Positions 1,639 to 64,000 of a stretch of DNA of 64,000 bases are shown here, in pieces. The DNA comes from an uncultured archaeon (GTDB lineage: Archaea > Thermoplasmatota > Penumbrarchaeia > JASLWR01). The notes beneath the pieces were generated by a model. It was not told the origin of the DNA. It was given only the letters and a program-made list of their open reading frames with translations, and searched no databases. Location of the stretch: contig CAYFHS010000017.1 in assembly GCA_964342815.1 (NCBI GenBank), forward strand, positions 13,302 to 77,301, in the 5' to 3' direction. A program made the position numbers and the translations under genes. The stretch's first letter is position 1. The number at the start of each line of letters is the position of its first letter.

Positions 1639-1963
1639 TCTCGAAAGAAAGTCGAGATTTTCAGCTTAGCAATGTTAGCGGAATCTCGGCCCGTAGGAAA
1701 CAAAATGTTTCCGAGGGCTCAGCAATGCCGAAGGTATTGCGGAATATAGTGGGAGCCTGTAGGTTTCCGAAGGAAATCGAAGGCTCAGGTGCATTTTTAA
1801 TGCACCGGAATCTGACCGGACACTTGCGGGCACCTGTAGGAACCTGAAGGGTTCTGAAGGTGCAGTTGCATCTCGATGCAACGGAGTAAAACGGGCAGGT
1901 CAGATGTGCCGTCAGGTACATCGAGATGTAATGGGAGCCCGTAGGGTCGATTCCGCCGAATAT
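1639..1963 (+). repeat. Modular multi-hairpin element E1 (3 core units inside a closing stem); candidate structured ncRNA or REP/MITE-like element
   Basis: Closing stem GCGGAATC (1678-1685)/GATTCCGC (1949-1956). Core units start at 1689, 1755 and 1830: GCCC/GGGC, GCCT/AGGC and GCACCT/AGGTGC stems around GTAG...YGA, each followed by a second hairpin and CGGA(A/G)T. Upstream hairpin TCTCGA/TCGAGA. Confidence 0.75.
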
Positions 1964-29632: not shown

Positions 29633-30127
29633 GATAATTACCTGGCCCTGGGAACACAAAAGGCCGATATAAATCTTTCCTCCGAGATGGTCAGTGAAAA
29701 ATCCTGAAATGACCTTTGGAGCTGATACGGTCGAATAATAATATTCGTTTCAAGTCAAAACTGGGTTCCTAGAGTATATCCGAGGTGAATTGACCAGGGA
29801 AAAGAGAGATATTTCGGGATACATCGGGGATTGTTGGGCTTCTCCAACCATATTATGTCTATTTGTGGGGTCAATCGCCTTCATTTCAACCCAATTTCAA
29901 CGATAATCCTTCATCGAATAAGAGTATTAAGGCAGGTGTGACTTTTTGATAGGTCTCGTGGTTCATGTGAGTAATGTTAAATATAACATTAATAATGTGG
30001 TAGGAAAATCTAATAGGGCAATTCATGGGCACTAATAATATTATCTGGCAAGTAAGAGAGAACATATAAGACTCTTAAAATTGAAAAAAACAGATATTCT
30101 ATCGATGCCCGTATATTGTCAAATGGA

Positions 30128-30331
30128 CAAACATCGACTTTTATCGATGTTTGCATATGATAATGTTCGCAGAATCGCAGCCCGTAGGTGCCTGAAGAAC
30201 GAAGTTCTTCTACACCCTAATAGAATCTCAGATTCTATGTCGGGAAACAGAATGTTTCTGAGGGCACAGCAACGCCCGAAAGGTGTTGCGAAGTGGAACG
30301 GGTGCCCGAAGGGACCGATTCTGCTGAATAT
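30128..30331 (+). repeat. Modular multi-hairpin element E2 in the putative 5' leader of aglB (candidate cis-regulatory RNA)
   Basis: Closing stem GCAGAATCG (30169-77)/CGATTCTGC (30316-24); core GCCC-GTAG ... TGA-GGGC-ACAG-CAACGCC/GGTGTTG; inserted hairpins GAAGAAC/GTTCTTC and ATAGAATC/GATTCTAT; upstream 10-bp hairpin CAAACATCGA/TCGATGTTTG. Confidence 0.75.
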
Positions 30332-30347
30332 TCAACAGGTGGATCTG

Positions 30348-33300
30348 ATGGTGAAAGAGATACCAAGAACGAAGAAATGGGAAAAAACGTTATCATCAGC
30401 GTCGGGGAAAAAGGCAGAAAAAGAAAGCCTGGTCACCAAATTCAAAACCTATTTCGGTATTGGAGCTTACGAGGGAAAGGATACTTGGTTCTCTCGTAAT
30501 TGGTGGTTACTATTGGCGCTGGCGGGAATATTTCTGGTGGGTATGTTCCTGAGATCTTACTTCTATTTTCCCATGGCACAGGACGTGGGCTTTTCAGGGA
30601 ACGACCCCTATTATCACAAAAGAGTAGTAGATTACATCCAGCAATCTCATTCACATCTGATAGAGGACAACATGCTGAATTATCCGGTTGGTGGCGCTAA
30701 TCCGCGACCTCCGTTCTACAACTGGTTCGTTGCGGTTTTCGGCATCATTCTTTCACCGTTATTCGGATTCAATGTAAAACTCGCCACGGAATCTATCATG
30801 TATCTAGCACCTTCCTTCTGGGGAGCATTGACAGTATTTCCGGTCTATTTCCTCGCCAAGGATATGTTTGGTAAAAAGGCGGGCGTAATAAGCGCATTTC
30901 TCATGGCATTCATGCCTTCCCATATCGAAAGGTCTCCTTCGGGATTCTCGGATCACGATTCTATAGTCGTCTTCTTCGTGGTGTTGTCGATATTCCTGCT
31001 GTTCAGGGCATATCGCACACTTAAGCACGAGGACTGGGTAAAGGACTGGCGAAGCACGAATTCGATCTATAAGGGATTTTCAACCTTCTTCAGAAAAAAT
31101 AAGGTATCACTGTATTACTCGCTTCTTTCGGGCGTTTCGCTGGCAACCATCGCACTTACCTGGAAAGGTTTTCCGTACGCTCTTGTGATCATAATCATAT
31201 ATTACATGCTTCAGCTTCTTTTCGATCGCTTCAGACACGTTGATTCAACCGGCGTTTTTATTTGTACTTTTCTGGCTCTTTTCTCTGCTTTGGCCATCTC
31301 GTTTCCGTACTATTACGTTCTCAGTTTCGGAACCTGGGCCACACCGGTCTATTTCCTTGCGGCTGTGGTTGTGATCGGAGTTTTGCTTATACCCACTCGT
31401 GATTATCCATGGATCATAGTGCTGCCTCTGGGAGTGATAGTGTCCCTTGTTGGCTATCTCTTCCTGAGCATCATTGCACCTGCAGCTGCCGAAGCTCTGA
31501 TAACGGGACAGGGTTATTTCGTGAAGACGAAACTGTACTCCACAATTGCTGAGGCTCAGCCTCCCGCATTTTCCAAGCTTATCGTGTCGTACGCAATGAT
31601 CGTGTTCTTCCTCGCAGTGATAGGGATCGTGAAAGCGGCTTTTCAGGTGCCGAAACACTGGAAGAGGGAATTTGTCTTCATCGTTGTTTGGGCCATCGTT
31701 GCCGTGTACATGGCCATGTCGGCCGCTCGTTTCATGTTCAACGCGACACCTGTGATAGCCATTGTTGCCGGATGGGTGCTGTACGACCTGATCCAAAAGA
31801 TAAACCTGAAGAGCAAGATATTGATATTCTATACTCTGATGCTTGGCCTGTCCCTGCTATTGCTGGGATGGTGGGGGATAAATCATGGATTCGGATACAA
31901 GTACACATTGTTTGTCTTTATGGCAGCGATCGCAATGGCAGCCATTCCAATTATCGTGGCCGTCTATGATAATTACGATAAAAGACCCGCCATAATGATA
32001 ATGGTTGCCATGTGTGCAATTTGGACCGTTGCGGTCATAGTTATGATTATTTTGGATGAAAACCTAAAATGGGACAACTTCGGAACTGTCATGCTGGATA
32101 ATATTAACATTTGGTATTTCGGCCTTGCTGCCCTGGGGATAATGGTCCTCCCGATACTCATATTTATAACCAAAAGGACTTTTGCGATTCTTCATATAAT
32201 ATTGATCACATCGGCCACATTTCTAATAATCGGACTCAAAGATACAGGTTCCTTCGACAGCTTGTTCACTTGGAAACCAATGGTTGTGGCGGTGGGATAT
32301 TCCATAATTCCCTGTGGAATATTGTTATTCAATATCTATTTCCTGTTCTCGGATAAATCTTACAGGAAGGAAACGGGCCGAAAGGTGCTTTTCGTAGGAC
32401 TGGAACTCTGGGTGCTTTCCTTTTTCTTCGATCCGCAAATATACACGGGACTCGCGGCCTTTGCTCTTTTCGTGATTAATCTTTACCTGCTAACTCCCTA
32501 CAGGAAAACTTTCAAGCACAAGACCAAACCAATGCATGTGATTATCACTCTATTCATCGTATTTATCGTAATATTCCCCACCTGCTGGTTTGCGATAGAT
32601 GCTTCCCTGCCTTATGAAAAGAAATTTGAGATGAATAACAGAGTTGCAAGGTCAATTCCCGATTTCATTAAAAGTGATACGGCTTCGAACAACAAATATT
32701 TCGGGGCCTTCGGTCACGGATTCACATCGGAATACTGGAGAAATGCATTTGATTGGCTTAGTAAACAGGACGTGGACAGGCCACCGGAGGAAAGACCCGG
32801 TTTCGTTAGCTGGTGGGATTACGGTTTCTGGTGCGCCTATCTCGGACAACATCCCACGGCTGCAGATAATTTCCAGTACGGTTACCAGTTTGCTGGAAGT
32901 TTCATCGCCTCCCAGAATGAATCGGAGGCAGTTGGATTGATGGTTGCCAGAACTATAGAAGGCGGTATCAAGGATCCTAAAATGAAAGAGGAGATCTCTG
33001 ACATCCTCGATAGCGATAAATATTTCGGGCCCGAGAAAAAATTCAAGAGCAACATCGATTCGTCCGATCTCAGCGCAAGTGAAAAGATATTCGAGATGTT
33101 GTTATATCCCGAGGAATACATAGAAGAGATAAAGAATAACCCGGAAAAATACGGCAAATACCTGCAGCTGCTCTATGGGAATGCCAGGTATGCATCGGTA
33201 AGAGGAATGCTGATGCCGCTAGGAGAGGATAAGATAATCGATCTAATGGCTGATATCGAGGGGATCACAGACAAGTGCATAAGATATTTCGCAGTGGATT

Positions 33301-36300
33301 ATCGCCTTTTCCCGTTCACGGCACAGAACACTGGTATCTTTTATGCTCCAATTAAACTGGCGGACAAGGATGTGGAGGATTTTCTGGAATATATTGCTGT
33401 TACCACAGAAGGCGATATGACCATGACGGAACTGGAAGAAAGGATATTACAAGAACCCGAATTCCGAGATCAGGTGACAGACTACAAATTGAAATACACC
33501 GATCAATTCTACGATTCCATGTTCTACAGGTGTTATATAGGCTACAGCGGTAAAGACCTCGGTGCAGGTGATCTCGGGGTACCCCTGCTTTCCCCCACGG
33601 GTGAATTCGCCTCGAACCAGTATTTTCAACCGATGCAGGGATGGAACATGAGCCATTTCAGGCTCGTGTACCGGACTACCTACTACACCCCCATGGATCC
33701 CCAAAACGCATCGTTCCCGGAAGATTTCACCGCCATGAACTCCGATGAAGCATACGAACTGTACGCCGAGCAAGGCGGATATCAGATATCCGGTCTCAGA
33801 CAGGGCGCCTTCTTTCTCAAATACTACCACGGTGCGCAGCTGGTGGGAAAATTGAGAGCGGAAGGGGAGGACGGAACACCCATGCCAGGGGTCCGAATAA
33901 CCGCAGTGGATGAATACGGTATTCTCCACGATGTATCAATCACGGATGAGAACGGTAATTACAATCTGACCCTTCCATTCGGAGAGGTTACGGTTGTGGC
34001 ATCCAAGGACGGATACGACGAAGAAAACGAGCTCTTCTCAAAATTAATGGGAAATGAGAAAACTGTACTGAACCGAACGGTTTTGCAGATCACTGATGAC
34101 CAGGCAATGAGGCGCGGCAACTGGATCATTAAAAAAGACCTCACCATAAAAAGATCCTCCATTGATGGTAAAGTGTACTACGATGACAATGACGACGGTG
34201 AATATGATATTTTCGATACATTGGCTACAGAAGCGGTTGTGGAGATCGTATCTAAGGACGGTCGTGAAATAACCTACAATGACAGTCTGGAAAACGGTGA
34301 ATTCAACATCACGAACGTGCTGCCCGCCGAATACGATATAAGGGTGATGACGGACGGTCATACGGTGAAGATCAAAGATCCGTTCTCGGTGGTACCAAAC
34401 GAAAATCAGCGGTTCAATGCTTTCACATTGCACCTTTTACTGCCAATGGGGAACATTTCCGGGAACATAACGTTCGATAACGGGACCCGGGCGCCTTCGA
34501 TACACGTGGAACTGAGAGATAATGAAAACGGTACCTTATATCATACCGACACGAACAAAACAGGCTTTTTTAATTTTGGTTCCCTTCTCCCGGGAAACTA
34601 CTCCCTGGTGGTAGACCATACCCTGTACAAGAGGCTCATGAAGGATATCGACCTCGAAGAGGGAGCTCTTTTCCAGCACAACTTTACCTTGACCGAGGTG
34701 GTTCCCGTATCCGGCGAAGTCTATTATGAAGGGATTGATGATAATAAGCAGCCGCTTCCGAACGCCAGAATACAGTTCATTGACGAGCTGTACCCGGAAA
34801 ACATAATAGTGGTCACATCCGATAAAAACGGCCAATACCTTGCTAATCTATCTCTCGGGAACTACACTATATATGCTGATTATACGAAAGGTAATGAGCA
34901 CTACACTTGCTTGGAAGAAGCCGAGTTCCGTGCTGGTGTGGAATATTCTAAGGATATTGAGTTAAGCAGCTCAATAAAGATAATGGGTACTCTTGGCATT
35001 CATGATGAGATCGATGTGGAGGAGGATAATTCAACAAAGGGGGTACTTGTCCGTTTCAGAGGAGAGTCCGGCAATTACTTCGCTCCCACCAACGACAGCA
35101 GCTATTTTTCGGTCTATCTGCCAGAAGGTGAATATCAGATATCCGCCGATCTTTTCCTAAAAGGGGATTATGGCGTAGCCGCAAAACACGTATCGGGAAC
35201 CGGAGGTGAAGAAATCACCATTGACCTCATCGCTAAGTGGGCTTATCCCGTTTACGGTTTCGTTTTCTGGGATAGAAACGGCGACATGAACTTGACCATT
35301 GGGAACAGTACTATCGATATAATGCGGCTATCGGAACAGTTTAGGGAGACTGAACCGGAATTGGAAGAGAACGATGAGATCCCCGAGGAATTTGAAGATT
35401 CCACAAGTTCCATCGCCGAAACTGACGACAGCGGTACAAGAGCGGACGAAAATGTGACCGAGGGTGAAGAAGAAACCCCATTCAGCGTGGATAACGTCAC
35501 CCTCCCCAATGCAACCAATGATACCGTGGAAGCACCGCCGTTATATGAGAACCTAACCCCTGCACACGTGGAATTCCGGCAAGGAGAGAATGTCTTTACT
35601 GCCGATACTAACCAAAGCGGGTTTTTCACACGCTTACTCCCTCTGGGAGATTATGTAATGCGGATTGAAACAGATGAAATTTCTCTGTATGAAACCACCG
35701 TAACCGTGTTTGACGGGAAAGATGACGTAATACAGCCTCCGATACGACCAAAAAATGTCACCTTCGACATATTCCTGGGAGTTGATCGGGACCTTGACGG
35801 GCAGCTTAAGGAAGACGAGCTCCTGAAGAGCTACGAACTGGAGTTTTCAGGCACAACTCCGGCTGCCGTGAATGCCACGTACAACTTCAGGCAGGGAAAT
35901 CCCAAGAAAGGGGCACTGGTACCAGGCGAATATAAAGTAAAATATCTGAAAGAATTCATACTGTCCGGGACTGATGTCCGCCAGGAGATGGAAACCAACA
36001 TAACCCTGCATCTGGGTGAGAGTGATCGGCAGCTTATCTTCCTCGTGGATGAAACGGTACGCTTCTCTGGGAAGGCTAAGACTGAAACTGACAGCCCTGC
36101 AGACAACGCGACCCTGACCCTGAGATCCATACACTTCAACACCACCACCGAGGTAAATTGTGACAAGCAGGGGAATTTCGATGAAAATGTTCCCTTCGGA
36201 ATGTATTTCGTAAGAACCAGTATCATTGAGGGCTCTTCGAACTTCCTCTTCAGGAAGATCATGGACATCTCCCCTGGAAACAGCCCATTCTCCATCATTC

Positions 36301-38579
36301 TGAAAAAAGCTCGTCCCTTCAACATAACGGTCTATTTCGACATTAATCAGGACGGCGGATTCCAGGGTGCTGAAAAACTGCTCAGCGTTCCCGTTAGCAT
36401 ATCCGCTGATATCACATCCACTCACACAACGGATTACAACGGCTTCATCAGCACATCGCTTTTACCCGGTAAGACCTACAACATATCCATAGATCACCTG
36501 ACATCCGACTCTTCTTTTAAGTATACCGCGAAACTGGTAATTGTAATGCCTGACGAACCTTACGAGATCTATCTTCCGGTAACGAAATACATCAAGGTGA
36601 AAGGGAAGACATTCTGGGACAAAGATGCGGATAATACCTTCGATACGGGAGAGGAGATTGCTGATGCAGATATCAGCGTAAGCCCCGTGGGAAGTCCTGG
36701 AGACTACACCGCCCGTTCGAATGCAGACGGCCAGTGGAACGTTTTCCTGCCCATTTACCTTGACAATAAACGGGAATATCAGTTCTCGACAAGCTCGGAA
36801 AGTTTCATACCGGATATTTTCTCAAGGGAAGTATCCTTGGACAATAAAACATTCGACATTGCTTTGGGGCCCCGTAAACTCGAATATCACGGTACCGTCT
36901 TCATGGATATATATCGAAATGACACAATGGATCCCGACGAGCTACCAGCACCTCTTAATACCATTATCAAATTTACCACGAATTCCAAGACAGGTCGAAA
37001 TACAAACGCCACCACTGATGTTAATGGTTATTATTCCACGGAATTATACCCGGGAGAATATTTCGTTGAGATACTCTCCATCGATGATGACGTTATATAT
37101 ATCTATGAAGCCGAGGAAACGGTCGCCCTTGGTGAGGACAAACTCTATTCCATTCCCATGGACCCGGGAGCGAACGTCTACGGGGCTGTGAAATATACGG
37201 ACACCGATCTGGTCGAACACAGGGAAATCGATTCTCAGGATAACAACATTACAATAAAGGGTGTAGGAAACGATATCGAAAGGGAACTCACATTCCAGGA
37301 TGGTTTTTACGAGACCTATCTGCCCTTTGGAGAGTATAAAATCGAAATGAAGGGTTATACCAGCAATGAATATGGAATGGAAATGGTATACGAGTATCCC
37401 GAAACCGATCATTATGTGGATTTCAATCCCTTTATCCTGGATTTCACCCTGTCAAAGGTGTACGATCGAACGCTGGAGCTGTCTATCCGGGAAGTGGTTG
37501 GAGAGGAGAATTTCGAAAAAACCGTCAATCAGGGAGAGACCGTTGAGCTTCATTTGAATGTTGAGAACAAGGGAAACGTAAAGCAGGAAGTTACACTCAA
37601 CGGGAAGGATCTACCCGAGGGGTGGTCCACCGATATCACGCCAAGAGAACAAGAACTGGATATTGGCGAATCTTTCGAAGCGAAGATTGTCGTACGAACC
37701 TCATTCGATTCATTCCGGCTCAATGAATTCAAAATCGAAGCAAAGAATGAGGCAGGGGATACCGAAGAAATAACTTTGAACATAAACACCCACCCGAAAT
37801 ACGACGTCGAAATATTTTCCCAGGACTTGCTCGCCAGGGGTTTTCGATCCAACGAGACAAAAAGATTCAACATAACCGTGATGAACAAGGGAAATGCTGC
37901 GGACGAGATAAAATTCTATCTCAAGCAGGATGCATCCCCGCTCTGGAATATAACGATGCAGGATGAGCCGCTCAATACCACTGGGATCCTTCACAGTTAT
38001 GAGCAGGACGACGTTTACAAGAACGTATCGTTCAAGATAACCGCTCCAAACCTTACCAAAAGCAGCGCAACCTTCAATATAGGAGTGGCCGGATTGGGTA
38101 TCAAGGAGAAAATAATAACCGTAAATGCTGTTATTGCAACTCCTGACATCAGCATTGCCGACATAAGCTTTGCAAACCTTGATATGGCTGACGAGGATAA
38201 GAACGTCACCATGTATGTCACAATTCACTGCGACCAGGCCGATGTTGGTAAATTCGATTTTAATGTATATCTCGACGATGAGAAGGTAGATGAGCTTTCA
38301 GATAACATAGAAGGAATTCTACAGGACGACGATCACAAACTGGTGTTCGACTGGAACCTCTCGGACAAGTTGGGGAAACACAAACTTGAGATTAAGGTTG
38401 ACGAGGATGACCAGATCCGTGAGAGGGATGACATCACTAACAACAACAGAGAGATAACAATTCATGTGGGCCCGGACGAATCAGAGGGATTCAACTGGCG
38501 TATAGTAATAGCCATATTCGTGGTCGTTATCTTGATCATCGTTGCCATGGTGGTTTGGAAGAAAAAGCAGATAGTGTAA
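30348..38579 (+). CDS. aglB: Giant oligosaccharyltransferase AglB/STT3 with an extra TM block and long C-terminal stalk (carboxypeptidase-regulatory/SdrD-B-like, Ig-like, CARDB) plus a terminal TM
   Basis: GNDPYYH, FSDHD, STIAE (TIXE-like) and SWWDYG motifs; repeated G.V(F/Y).D.N.DG..D units; NKGN Ig motifs. Start MVKEIP at 30348 with CAGGTGG upstream; about 2743 aa. Confidence 0.93.
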   Translation: MVKEIPRTKKWEKTLSSASGKKAEKESLVTKFKTYFGIGAYEGKDTWFSRNWWLLLALAGIFLVGMFLRSYFYFPMAQDVGFSGNDPYYHKRVVDYIQQSHSHLIEDNMLNYPVGGANPRPPFYNWFVAVFGIILSPLFGFNVKLATESIMYLAPSFWGALTVFPVYFLAKDMFGKKAGVISAFLMAFMPSHIERSPSGFSDHDSIVVFFVVLSIFLLFRAYRTLKHEDWVKDWRSTNSIYKGFSTFFRKNKVSLYYSLLSGVSLATIALTWKGFPYALVIIIIYYMLQLLFDRFRHVDSTGVFICTFLALFSALAISFPYYYVLSFGTWATPVYFLAAVVVIGVLLIPTRDYPWIIVLPLGVIVSLVGYLFLSIIAPAAAEALITGQGYFVKTKLYSTIAEAQPPAFSKLIVSYAMIVFFLAVIGIVKAAFQVPKHWKREFVFIVVWAIVAVYMAMSAARFMFNATPVIAIVAGWVLYDLIQKINLKSKILIFYTLMLGLSLLLLGWWGINHGFGYKYTLFVFMAAIAMAAIPIIVAVYDNYDKRPAIMIMVAMCAIWTVAVIVMIILDENLKWDNFGTVMLDNINIWYFGLAALGIMVLPILIFITKRTFAILHIILITSATFLIIGLKDTGSFDSLFTWKPMVVAVGYSIIPCGILLFNIYFLFSDKSYRKETGRKVLFVGLELWVLSFFFDPQIYTGLAAFALFVINLYLLTPYRKTFKHKTKPMHVIITLFIVFIVIFPTCWFAIDASLPYEKKFEMNNRVARSIPDFIKSDTASNNKYFGAFGHGFTSEYWRNAFDWLSKQDVDRPPEERPGFVSWWDYGFWCAYLGQHPTAADNFQYGYQFAGSFIASQNESEAVGLMVARTIEGGIKDPKMKEEISDILDSDKYFGPEKKFKSNIDSSDLSASEKIFEMLLYPEEYIEEIKNNPEKYGKYLQLLYGNARYASVRGMLMPLGEDKIIDLMADIEGITDKCIRYFAVDYRLFPFTAQNTGIFYAPIKLADKDVEDFLEYIAVTTEGDMTMTELEERILQEPEFRDQVTDYKLKYTDQFYDSMFYRCYIGYSGKDLGAGDLGVPLLSPTGEFASNQYFQPMQGWNMSHFRLVYRTTYYTPMDPQNASFPEDFTAMNSDEAYELYAEQGGYQISGLRQGAFFLKYYHGAQLVGKLRAEGEDGTPMPGVRITAVDEYGILHDVSITDENGNYNLTLPFGEVTVVASKDGYDEENELFSKLMGNEKTVLNRTVLQITDDQAMRRGNWIIKKDLTIKRSSIDGKVYYDDNDDGEYDIFDTLATEAVVEIVSKDGREITYNDSLENGEFNITNVLPAEYDIRVMTDGHTVKIKDPFSVVPNENQRFNAFTLHLLLPMGNISGNITFDNGTRAPSIHVELRDNENGTLYHTDTNKTGFFNFGSLLPGNYSLVVDHTLYKRLMKDIDLEEGALFQHNFTLTEVVPVSGEVYYEGIDDNKQPLPNARIQFIDELYPENIIVVTSDKNGQYLANLSLGNYTIYADYTKGNEHYTCLEEAEFRAGVEYSKDIELSSSIKIMGTLGIHDEIDVEEDNSTKGVLVRFRGESGNYFAPTNDSSYFSVYLPEGEYQISADLFLKGDYGVAAKHVSGTGGEEITIDLIAKWAYPVYGFVFWDRNGDMNLTIGNSTIDIMRLSEQFRETEPELEENDEIPEEFEDSTSSIAETDDSGTRADENVTEGEEETPFSVDNVTLPNATNDTVEAPPLYENLTPAHVEFRQGENVFTADTNQSGFFTRLLPLGDYVMRIETDEISLYETTVTVFDGKDDVIQPPIRPKNVTFDIFLGVDRDLDGQLKEDELLKSYELEFSGTTPAAVNATYNFRQGNPKKGALVPGEYKVKYLKEFILSGTDVRQEMETNITLHLGESDRQLIFLVDETVRFSGKAKTETDSPADNATLTLRSIHFNTTTEVNCDKQGNFDENVPFGMYFVRTSIIEGSSNFLFRKIMDISPGNSPFSIILKKARPFNITVYFDINQDGGFQGAEKLLSVPVSISADITSTHTTDYNGFISTSLLPGKTYNISIDHLTSDSSFKYTAKLVIVMPDEPYEIYLPVTKYIKVKGKTFWDKDADNTFDTGEEIADADISVSPVGSPGDYTARSNADGQWNVFLPIYLDNKREYQFSTSSESFIPDIFSREVSLDNKTFDIALGPRKLEYHGTVFMDIYRNDTMDPDELPAPLNTIIKFTTNSKTGRNTNATTDVNGYYSTELYPGEYFVEILSIDDDVIYIYEAEETVALGEDKLYSIPMDPGANVYGAVKYTDTDLVEHREIDSQDNNITIKGVGNDIERELTFQDGFYETYLPFGEYKIEMKGYTSNEYGMEMVYEYPETDHYVDFNPFILDFTLSKVYDRTLELSIREVVGEENFEKTVNQGETVELHLNVENKGNVKQEVTLNGKDLPEGWSTDITPREQELDIGESFEAKIVVRTSFDSFRLNEFKIEAKNEAGDTEEITLNINTHPKYDVEIFSQDLLARGFRSNETKRFNITVMNKGNAADEIKFYLKQDASPLWNITMQDEPLNTTGILHSYEQDDVYKNVSFKITAPNLTKSSATFNIGVAGLGIKEKIITVNAVIATPDISIADISFANLDMADEDKNVTMYVTIHCDQADVGKFDFNVYLDDEKVDELSDNIEGILQDDDHKLVFDWNLSDKLGKHKLEIKVDEDDQIRERDDITNNNREITIHVGPDESEGFNWRIVIAIFVVVILIIVAMVVWKKKQIV

Positions 38580-63508: not shown

Positions 63509-63587
63509 AGGTCGGCCCTGGTCCGTAGGCACACCTGCCGAGGACGCAGGTGCGTGAAATGCACCGTAACGCAGTGGGCGCCGACCT
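63509..63587 (+). repeat. Multi-hairpin element, single core unit (B)
   Basis: AGGTCGGC/GCCGACCT closing stem; GTCC-GTAG-GCAcaccTGC-CGA-GGAC-GCAG-GTGC/GCAC-CGTAAC. Confidence 0.72.
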
Positions 63588-63630: not shown

Positions 63631-63719
63631 GGACCTGCGTTTCTTACGTCGCCCGTAGGCTTAAAAGGCGAGGGCTCAGGTGTGACGTAGTTACACCGGA
63701 GTGAAACGGGAGCAGGTCC
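63631..63719 (+). repeat. Multi-hairpin element, single core unit (C)
   Basis: GGACCTGC/GCAGGTCC closing stem; GCCC-GTAG...CGA-GGGC-TCAG-GTGTGAC/GTTACAC-CGGAGTGAAACGGG. Confidence 0.72.
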
Positions 63720-63837: not shown

Positions 63838-63996
63838 GCGGAATTGATCCTCCGGGCGCACACTTCATTACGCAACACCTTTCAGGCGTTGCTGCGCCCT
63901 CGGCAAGTGTGCCTACGGGCCACGATTCCGCGAACTATGACAGGTAACGGCTTGCCAAGTCACGTCTTGGCAAGTTAGCTGAATCTCTGATTCAGC
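63838..63996 (-). repeat. Multi-hairpin element E3 (inverted copy) with upstream hairpins
   Basis: Minus strand: GTTCGCGGAATC-gtg-GCCC-GTAG-GCAcactTGC-CGA-GGGC-GCAG-CAACGCCT/AGGTGTTG-CGTAAT...AATTCCGC; flanking hairpins CTTGCCAAG/CTTGGCAAG and GCTGAATC/GATTCAGC. Confidence 0.72.
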
Positions 63997-64000
63997 GAAA

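Follow-up and report, generated by a model that had tools for sequence, protein, structure and literature searches.

The question

Small hairpin repeats of the REP/BIME type are well studied in bacteria and hardly described in archaea. The window analyzed here, a stretch of 64,000 nucleotides from a contig of an uncultured archaeon of the Thermoplasmatota, carries multi-hairpin elements built from one recurring unit at three loci, which a first-pass annotation ascribed either to an undescribed family of structured RNAs or to an archaeal REP/MITE-like mobile system. The locus thus raises the question of whether these elements are functional RNAs of the genes that they precede or mobile DNA and, if mobile, by what kind of enzyme they are moved. 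No paper on REP/BIME-type hairpin repeats in Thermoplasmatota was found in the literature, and the family is apparently undescribed in archaea. The analysis described below favors the second answer: the elements are probably small, non-autonomous, mutually nesting mobile DNA repeats, similar to REPs, BIMEs, and PATEs, which are active through hairpins of single-stranded DNA (ssDNA).

Genomes, models, and distribution of the repeat

The contig belongs to G000, a metagenome-assembled genome (MAG) of 4.35 Mb, which is 89% complete and has a GC content of 45%. Two relatives, the congener G001 and G003, a member of another genus of the same family, are also rich in the repeat; all three are MAGs of 89–93% completeness, and the genomes of this repeat-rich marine clade are unusually large (3.6–4.4 Mb). 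A loose structural regular expression (a 4-bp outer and a 4-bp inner stem around GTA...GA) returned counts that were not above those of permuted-motif controls; being too unspecific, it was replaced by nhmmer and a covariance model, R1, which was built from five clean units (alignment A1) and comprises 66 positions and 19 pairs. At a threshold of E≤0.01, R1 matched at least 134 units in G000, where the count is a lower bound since 150 of 545 candidates were scored; the minimum counts for G001 and G003 are 118 and 124, respectively. The genomes G002 and G030 yielded one unit each, and the search of 36 other relatives yielded none. Chance is ruled far out by 134 matches at E≤0.01 in 4.35 Mb, as compared with none in 36 related genomes. 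The two solitary units are canonical (L111 of G030, 1501–1568; L112 of G002, 1501–1571) and lie in genomes otherwise devoid of the family, where they may represent relics, transfers, or errors of binning.

Searches of Rfam 15 with the window and two loci of relatives, at both gathering and permissive thresholds, gave no match, and the sole sub-threshold hit was a chance miRNA (E = 4.8).

Units and composite elements of the window

Reading of the sequence confirmed all seven core units of the first-pass annotation at the places where it had located them. Six were recovered by R1 (all E≤1e-11); the seventh, U2, whose third hairpin (H3) is interrupted by another module, was the top nhmmer match (E = 4e-10). 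The reported variants of the outer stem P1 and the fixed GTAG/YGA junction are both found in the units, as are the right end, GATTC(C/T)GC followed by YGAAT, and the terminal GCCC-GNA-GGG hairpin (1937–1948 and 30304–30315). However, the unit is larger than was described, at about 66 nt, continuing 3' into CG(G/T)A, RY-GNA-RY, GKG, and NNC. Similarly, the ends shared by the elements do exist, but they form the stem of an inner hairpin, HpB, rather than the termini, so that the first two elements, E1 and E2, when delimited by the termini of the enclosing two-hairpin shell, span 1568–1961 and 30113–30329, respectively. The third locus resolves into three distinct elements, each of which has one unit and an outer stem unlike those of the other two.

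E1 (1568–1961, + strand) is a complete composite element, in which a shell running from ATATTGTCAATGG to GATTCCGCCGAAT encloses three units and other nested modules; its termini fit the consensus of the shell, of which the genome has 18 occurrences, and its DNA fold has a z-score of −8.7. All its parts lie on the + strand. Shell hairpin A (ATATTGTCAA...TTAGCAATGT, 1568–1675) has extra hairpins inserted in its loop and is followed by the 5' strand of hairpin B (GCGGAATC, 1678–1685), which pairs with 1949–1956. Then come unit U1 (1686–1756; R1, 74.2 bits), unit U2 (1752–1833), with its H3 split by a CTGACC...TCGAG module, and the TCTGACC/GGTCAGA stem module (1811–1904), in which 1811–1817 pairs with 1898–1904, as had been noted, and into which unit U3 (1829–1898; R1, 63.7 bits) is inserted. 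At the right end (1937–1961), the mini-hairpin GCCC-GTA-GGGT forms the apex, after which come the second strand of hairpin B and, as the 3' terminus, CGAAT. The module inside the H3 mini-hairpin of U2 reads CTGAC...GTCAG, then TGTGCC...GGTACA, then CGAG (1811–1935 in the window, and at locus L147 of G001), and is bordered on both sides by AT, the same dinucleotide as at the shell junctions considered below.

E2 (30113–30329, + strand) is a complete shell element, defined by its shell termini, with a single unit and an RNA fold z-score of −7.2. Its unit, U4 (30177–30305, + strand; R1, 52.6 bits), bears a 55-nt two-hairpin insertion at 30189–30243, between GTAG and the first hairpin (H1), and the TAGAATC-loop-GATTCTA module of this unit recurs at many loci. 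A mechanically called open reading frame (ORF), 30081–38579 with a TTG start, reads through E2; the conserved alignment with G001 begins at 30326, and the start of aglB is likely the ATG at 30348, which places E2 18 nt upstream of the likely start codon, in sense orientation.

At the third locus, E3a (63510–63586, + strand) is a single unit (63518–63581; R1, 74.7 bits) closed by GGTCGGC/GCCGACC, and E3b (63631–63719, + strand) is a single unit (63648–63713; R1, 80.9 bits) closed by GGACCTGC/GCAGGTCC, which belongs to a subfamily with near-identical copies on other contigs. E3c (63838–64000, − strand) is a shell-type element with a unit at 63856–63923 (R1, 79.4 bits), and it reaches the contig end. 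The stretch 63940–64000 contains further hairpins that belong to different module types, namely CTTGCCAAG-loop-CTTGGCAAG and GCTGAATC-loop-GATTCAGC. Since the contig ends inside a repeat cluster and many other copies also lie at contig ends, the repeat family breaks the assemblies.

Unit architecture, covariation, and strand

The layout of the unit was drawn from 41 distinct G000 copies, and base conservation was counted over 44. From 5' to 3', the unit comprises P1 (4 bp), a GUA/GA internal loop, H1, P1b (2 bp), H2, and the mini-hairpin H3 (RY-GNA-RY). P1b lies directly 3' of P1 and encloses the remainder of the unit, which contains an invariant AG, an H2 of 7 bp with one position kept as G-U or A-U, then C-G-(G/T)-A, H3 with its 2-bp stem and GNA triloop, and finally G-(G/T)-G. 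The junction is conserved at G8 (43/44), U9 (36/44), A10 (43/44), and G11 (37/44), as is the strand opposite GUA (G in 41/44 and A in 44/44); the U of GUA is replaced by C in about 16–24% of copies, and H1 begins at the final G of GTAG. A k-turn reading of the GTAG/GA junction was ruled out, as position 2b is G and not A, and G11 covaries as a Watson–Crick pair.

The covariation signal is unambiguous. In the alignment of 41 distinct G000 copies, 95.4% of cells are paired and 18 of the 19 pairs show double changes (210 cells), and an independent alignment of 46 distinct copies from G001, G003, and the two single-copy genomes gave 97.0%, 18 of 19 pairs, and 248 double-change cells, although these double-change counts overstate the number of independent events because the copies are paralogues and relatives. 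In slid-alignment controls, by comparison, 28–47% of cells are paired (33–45% for G000).

The sense strand was assigned by the asymmetric junction motifs and not by wobbles. On this strand, G-U exceeds A-C in the helices by 42:10 in G000 and 56:8 in the relatives, which indicates that the fold is selected on one strand; the structure therefore matters as a single strand, either of RNA or of ssDNA. Furthermore, the sense strand is the more stable in 105 of 117 units (mean of −24.8 kcal/mol, against −20.8 kcal/mol for the antisense strand). In 134 units, the sense strand has 246 C-GNA-G pentamers and the antisense strand 31, with 14 literal occurrences of GCGAAGC and 17 of CCGAAGG. Such mini-hairpins are extraordinarily stable as DNA, with a Tm of 76.5 °C for GCGAAGC, and their RNA versions are much less so (PMC13037366, PMC3201870). 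Judged by this published thermodynamics, the loop type points to DNA rather than RNA.

A reading of the family as functional structured RNAs, i.e., small RNAs or cis-acting leader or trailer modules whose bulged-G-like GUA/GA loop and three-way junction would engage in protein binding or mRNA stability and whose copies would have spread secondarily in the manner of SINEs, draws on much of the same evidence. The compensatory change is strong, the unpaired GUA, GA, AG, CGKA, and GG are invariant, and the G-U/A-U position is conserved; strand-specific folding with a more stable sense strand suits RNA as well as it does ssDNA, E2 is sense-oriented in the aglB leader, and for many REPs both transcription and a role at the RNA level have been described (PMC3733652). 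Against it stand the triloops, which are of the DNA-stable GNA type and not GNRA, the lack of any Rfam match, and a shell in which no conserved internal promoter or terminator is seen. Metatranscriptome contigs from three RNA runs contain the flanking genes of E1 at 100% identity and leave E1 itself uncovered; as such contigs drop repeats, this weighs neither for nor against an RNA. Two further lines of evidence, genomic orientation and insertion polymorphism, bear on this reading.

Genomic location and orientation

The family is essentially intergenic: although naive ORFs with a minimum length of 120 aa cover 88% of the genome, 114 of the 134 G000 units fall outside them, and for most of the other 20 the overlap seems due to ORF calls that are spurious or extended upstream. 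The 134 units form 96 clusters, many at contig ends, and the arrays are mostly co-oriented tandems, with mixed orientation in 13 of the 96. Relative to the neighboring genes, 23 clusters are opposite to both, 20 have the same orientation as both, and the two mixed classes hold 14 each, so that unit orientation looks random with respect to genes; the 23 clusters antisense to both neighbors speak against the structured-RNA reading. The clusters fall into tandem (30 + 19), divergent (16), and convergent (16) intergenic regions, as compared with background numbers of 365, 340, 354, and 151, respectively, which shows that promoter-side regions are not preferred. The association with cell-envelope genes reported by the first-pass annotation holds for the three loci of the window, but these orientation and intergenic-type counts show that it is not a genome-wide property of the family, and they lend no support to a functional tie with surface or glycosylation genes.

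Outside the window, on G000 contig C4 (131269–132241), two inverted units bracket 830 nt with a pair of small-protein genes, which were assigned by eye from their translations as HicB-like and HicA-like, and the direct repeat ATCGCT(A/G)AACGTCTCCGATC is found at both ends of the stretch. From its sequence, this stretch may be a toxin–antitoxin cassette carried between repeats.

Shells and insertion polymorphism

The shell is a structure of about 90 nt composed of two adjacent hairpins, HpA and HpB, one at each end. It reads, from the 5' end, ATATTGTCAATGG (HpA), GTTCGCGGAATCG, a GCCC-GAA-GGGC mini-hairpin, GATTCCGC, and the 3' terminus GCTGAAT (HpB), and its 3' end has the consensus GATTC(C/T)GC(T/C)GAAT. 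Among about 185,000 species genomes, recurrence of an 18-mer of the shell end is confined to this clade; outside it, there are single scattered matches in unrelated bacteria. The 18 full shells of 77–474 nt have identical termini, the shortest being bare two-hairpin shells. Cargo is present in 11 of 25 HpB hairpins, the other 14 being empty and about 40 nt long, and the loop of HpA hosts other modules. The units inside shells are co-oriented with the shell without exception (13:0). Whether the host is a shell, another unit, or another module, a unit starts at GTAG, just 5' of the loop of a C-GNA-G mini-hairpin, and in a constant orientation.

Comparison with the congener revealed that these elements come and go at orthologous sites. 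E1 and E2 are both absent from the corresponding G001 sites: the flanks of E1, about 410 nt apart in G000, are separated by about 20 nt, and those of E2 abut. The reverse is also seen, as five G001 elements of 244–518 nt face gaps of 8–31 nt in G000. For one shell of G000, on contig C29, the sequence of the filled site is GACGTTAC-AT-[ATTGTCAATGG...CGCTGA]-AT-TTTAAG, and G001 has a clean empty site, GACGTTAC-AT-TTTAAG; the 2-nt AT at the shell junctions is ambiguous between a duplication, a core dinucleotide, and an element end. Units also differ in number within elements. One orthologous site has one unit in G000 and several in G001, and at another a single extra G000 unit sits exactly between AGCCC and GA(A/C)GGGCC (GAAGGGCC) of the shell mini-hairpin. 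In addition, the host module of U3 exists in G001 without a unit at the same point, and the U3 insertion is flanked by GGGCA on both sides. Most element boundaries are approximate because the sister genomes differ by about 15–25% in intergenic DNA. As an alternative to transposition, units could be gained and lost between short direct repeats through recombination or replication slippage.

Such presence and absence at orthologous sites of sister species, together with one or zero copies in most relatives, tells against functional structured RNAs, and we consider the structured-RNA reading unlikely. In practice, annotation of the copies as riboswitches or as RNAs dedicated to regulation should be avoided. 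An element that has landed in a leader, as E2 has before aglB, is probably part of the transcript of the gene and may alter its expression as a side effect. Under the preferred reading of mobile DNA repeats, the active form would be single-stranded DNA, e.g., the lagging-strand template; an enzyme supplied in trans would recognize the shape along with the invariant junction bases, and would cut and rejoin beside the GNA loop, much as HUH (Y1) enzymes do for IS200/IS605, PATEs, and REP/RAYT.

A guide-like internal strand

The unit contains a short strand that is complementary to two different pieces of DNA. In 95 parsed units, the six bases following GA (positions 94–99) were examined for pairing with the 5' flank, which occurs at frequencies of 0.97, 0.97, 0.98, 0.89, 0.71, and 0.46, and for pairing with the 3' end of the unit, at frequencies of 0.45, 0.69, 0.76, 0.95, 0.96, and 0.94. 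One continuous strand (GGGNNC) is thus the complement of the 5' flank via P1 and of the unit 3' end via P1b, the two separate pieces overlapping by 1–2 nt. In shells and tandem arrays, the 3' piece grows to a full 6-nt complement. After insertion of a unit, CC|GNA-GG is present at both junctions; its recreation on each side with every insertion would explain how tandem and nested arrays arise.

A guide function of this strand is possible. The pairing pattern is equally compatible with base-paired target choice of the IS608 type and with a structural three-way junction combined with gain and loss between direct repeats. On a further-reaching reading, the unit could be a self-addressed ssDNA transposon of a new type, in which the six-base strand would read the flank of the insertion as well as the 3' end of the unit itself, and insertion would take place at the 5' edge of C-GNA-G, regenerating the target on both sides. 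The enzyme would then be neither RAYT nor IS200 TnpA nor any known transposase; possible candidates are host proteins of replication or repair and archaeal nucleases yet to be described. In a variant of this model, the same fold would possibly double as a bulged-G RNA module once transcribed. We regard this scheme as speculative and rather doubtful as a whole.

Search for a mobilizing enzyme

A profile search for Y1 transposases (PF01797) found none in G000, which is 89% complete, four in G001 (two full-length and two partial), one in G003, and others in four repeat-free relatives. The association of Y1 genes with repeat-rich genomes (2/3 vs 4/38) was rejected as too weak, the genomes being related and the genes of IS200 type. 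Two full-length proteins, one from G001 and one from G003, score 115 and 99 bits, respectively, with the IS200 model and 25.8 and 24.2 bits with the RAYT model (NF047646), the cut-off of which is 80, and no units were found within 1.5 kb of the examined Y1 genes of these two genomes. The RAYT or TnpB gene that the first-pass annotation had suggested as a possible neighbor of the copies did not emerge: the proteins of the three repeat-rich genomes (89–93% complete) all fall short of the RAYT cut-off, and there is no TnpB in any of the five genomes searched. G003 does contain an intact IS200-type element (L135 on G003:C1, 1270–2010), with a tnpA of 163 aa, AACGCCAG...CTGG hairpins on both sides, and no tnpB; the GCCAG...CTGG end hairpins of this element are unlike any module of the hairpin-repeat family.

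Other enzyme classes gave no better candidate. None of IS110, RT, DDE_Tnp_1, DDE_3, Y2, and rve is common to the three repeat-rich genomes, and the IS110 match in G000 lies on a contig (C110, 1,579 bp) with 63% GC, as opposed to 45% for the genome; this contig is probably a binning contaminant and carries no repeat motifs. Self-BLAST of about 2,600 ORFs returned no multi-copy transposase-like gene. The genes between neighboring repeat clusters are mutually unrelated and mostly ordinary-looking cellular genes, with no REPtron-like arrangement, and long-distance pairing of unpaired shell 5' and 3' ends disclosed no long, possibly autonomous element.

These results bear on whether the family consists of true REPs or REPINs mobilized by a RAYT (TnpA-REP) whose gene was lost in assembly gaps. 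The GTAG directly 5' of a hairpin, the high copy number, and the extragenic position are those expected of REPs, G000 is only 89% complete, and some REP-bearing species are known to be without REPtrons (PMC3733652). However, the Y1 proteins that were found score as IS200 and not as RAYT, no units flank the examined Y1 genes, and the unit, at about 66 nt with three hairpins, occurs mostly in co-oriented tandems and not in inverted doublets, which renders this explanation quite improbable. Hence, the proposal of an archaeal REP/MITE-like mobile system stands insofar as the family is high-copy, intergenic, lineage-restricted, and insertion-polymorphic between sister species, but strict REP/RAYT membership fails since no RAYT was found. 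A classical MITE, moved by cut-and-paste through a DDE transposase that recognizes terminal inverted repeats (TIRs), would suit the A/T-rich junctions and the inverted-repeat pair GCGGAATC/GATTCCGC but is highly improbable. The pair forms a stem inside the element, the actual ends of which (ATATTG... and ...GCTGAAT) are not mutual inverted repeats; duplication is limited to 2 nt at most, the three genomes share no DDE family, and the search for a long partner element found none.

Comparison with known systems

The non-autonomous mobile repeats proposed here resemble most closely the GTAG-tagged superfamily of REP, BIME, and REPIN elements with their RAYTs, with which they share the position of GTAG directly 5' of a hairpin, an extragenic copy number in the hundreds, and mosaic clusters (PMC3733652, PMC3479197, PMC8266576), as well as compensatory stems, a patchy distribution among relatives, and a single-stranded, strand-specific structure. 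They differ in their archaeal host, in a unit that measures about 66 nt and combines three hairpins with a three-way junction, as opposed to the single 20–40-nt palindrome of a REP, in the GTA opposite a conserved GA, in the mostly co-oriented tandems nested in a shell, and in that no RAYT was detected. This distinctive architecture of three-way junction, GNA mini-hairpins, and flank-complementary strand, taken together with the missing RAYT, points to a mobilization mechanism that is not yet known. The family fills the intergenic space of the genomes of one marine clade and occupies gene leaders such as that of aglB.

With IS200/IS605 elements and the PATEs of haloarchaea and cyanobacteria, the repeat has in common end hairpins in place of TIRs, little or no target duplication, and strand polarity (PMC3119063, PMC6006769), and its short strand complementary to the flank and to its own end recalls the guide and cleavage-site logic of IS608. 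PATE ends, however, match those of resident IS200/IS605 elements whose TnpA can act in trans, whereas the end hairpins of the resident IS200 elements of G001 and G003 are unrelated to the repeat and no TnpA was found in G000; moreover, there is no TnpB, and the target is apparently a mini-hairpin loop and not a fixed tetranucleotide. The Correia elements of Neisseria, pneumococcal BOX and RUP, and the RPEs of Rickettsia are likewise modular small non-coding repeats, often co-transcribed and affecting neighboring genes, but they are bounded by TIRs or built of boxA/B/C modules, have other sequences, and in no case show the GUA/GA and GNA mini-hairpin architecture. Finally, the 5'-GUA-3'/5'-GA-3' loop flanked by Watson–Crick pairs shares the core signature of the bulged-G (sarcin-ricin/loop E) RNA module, a resemblance at the level of sequence; in the repeat, CC-GTA-GG is equally able to form a GNA mini-hairpin of DNA.
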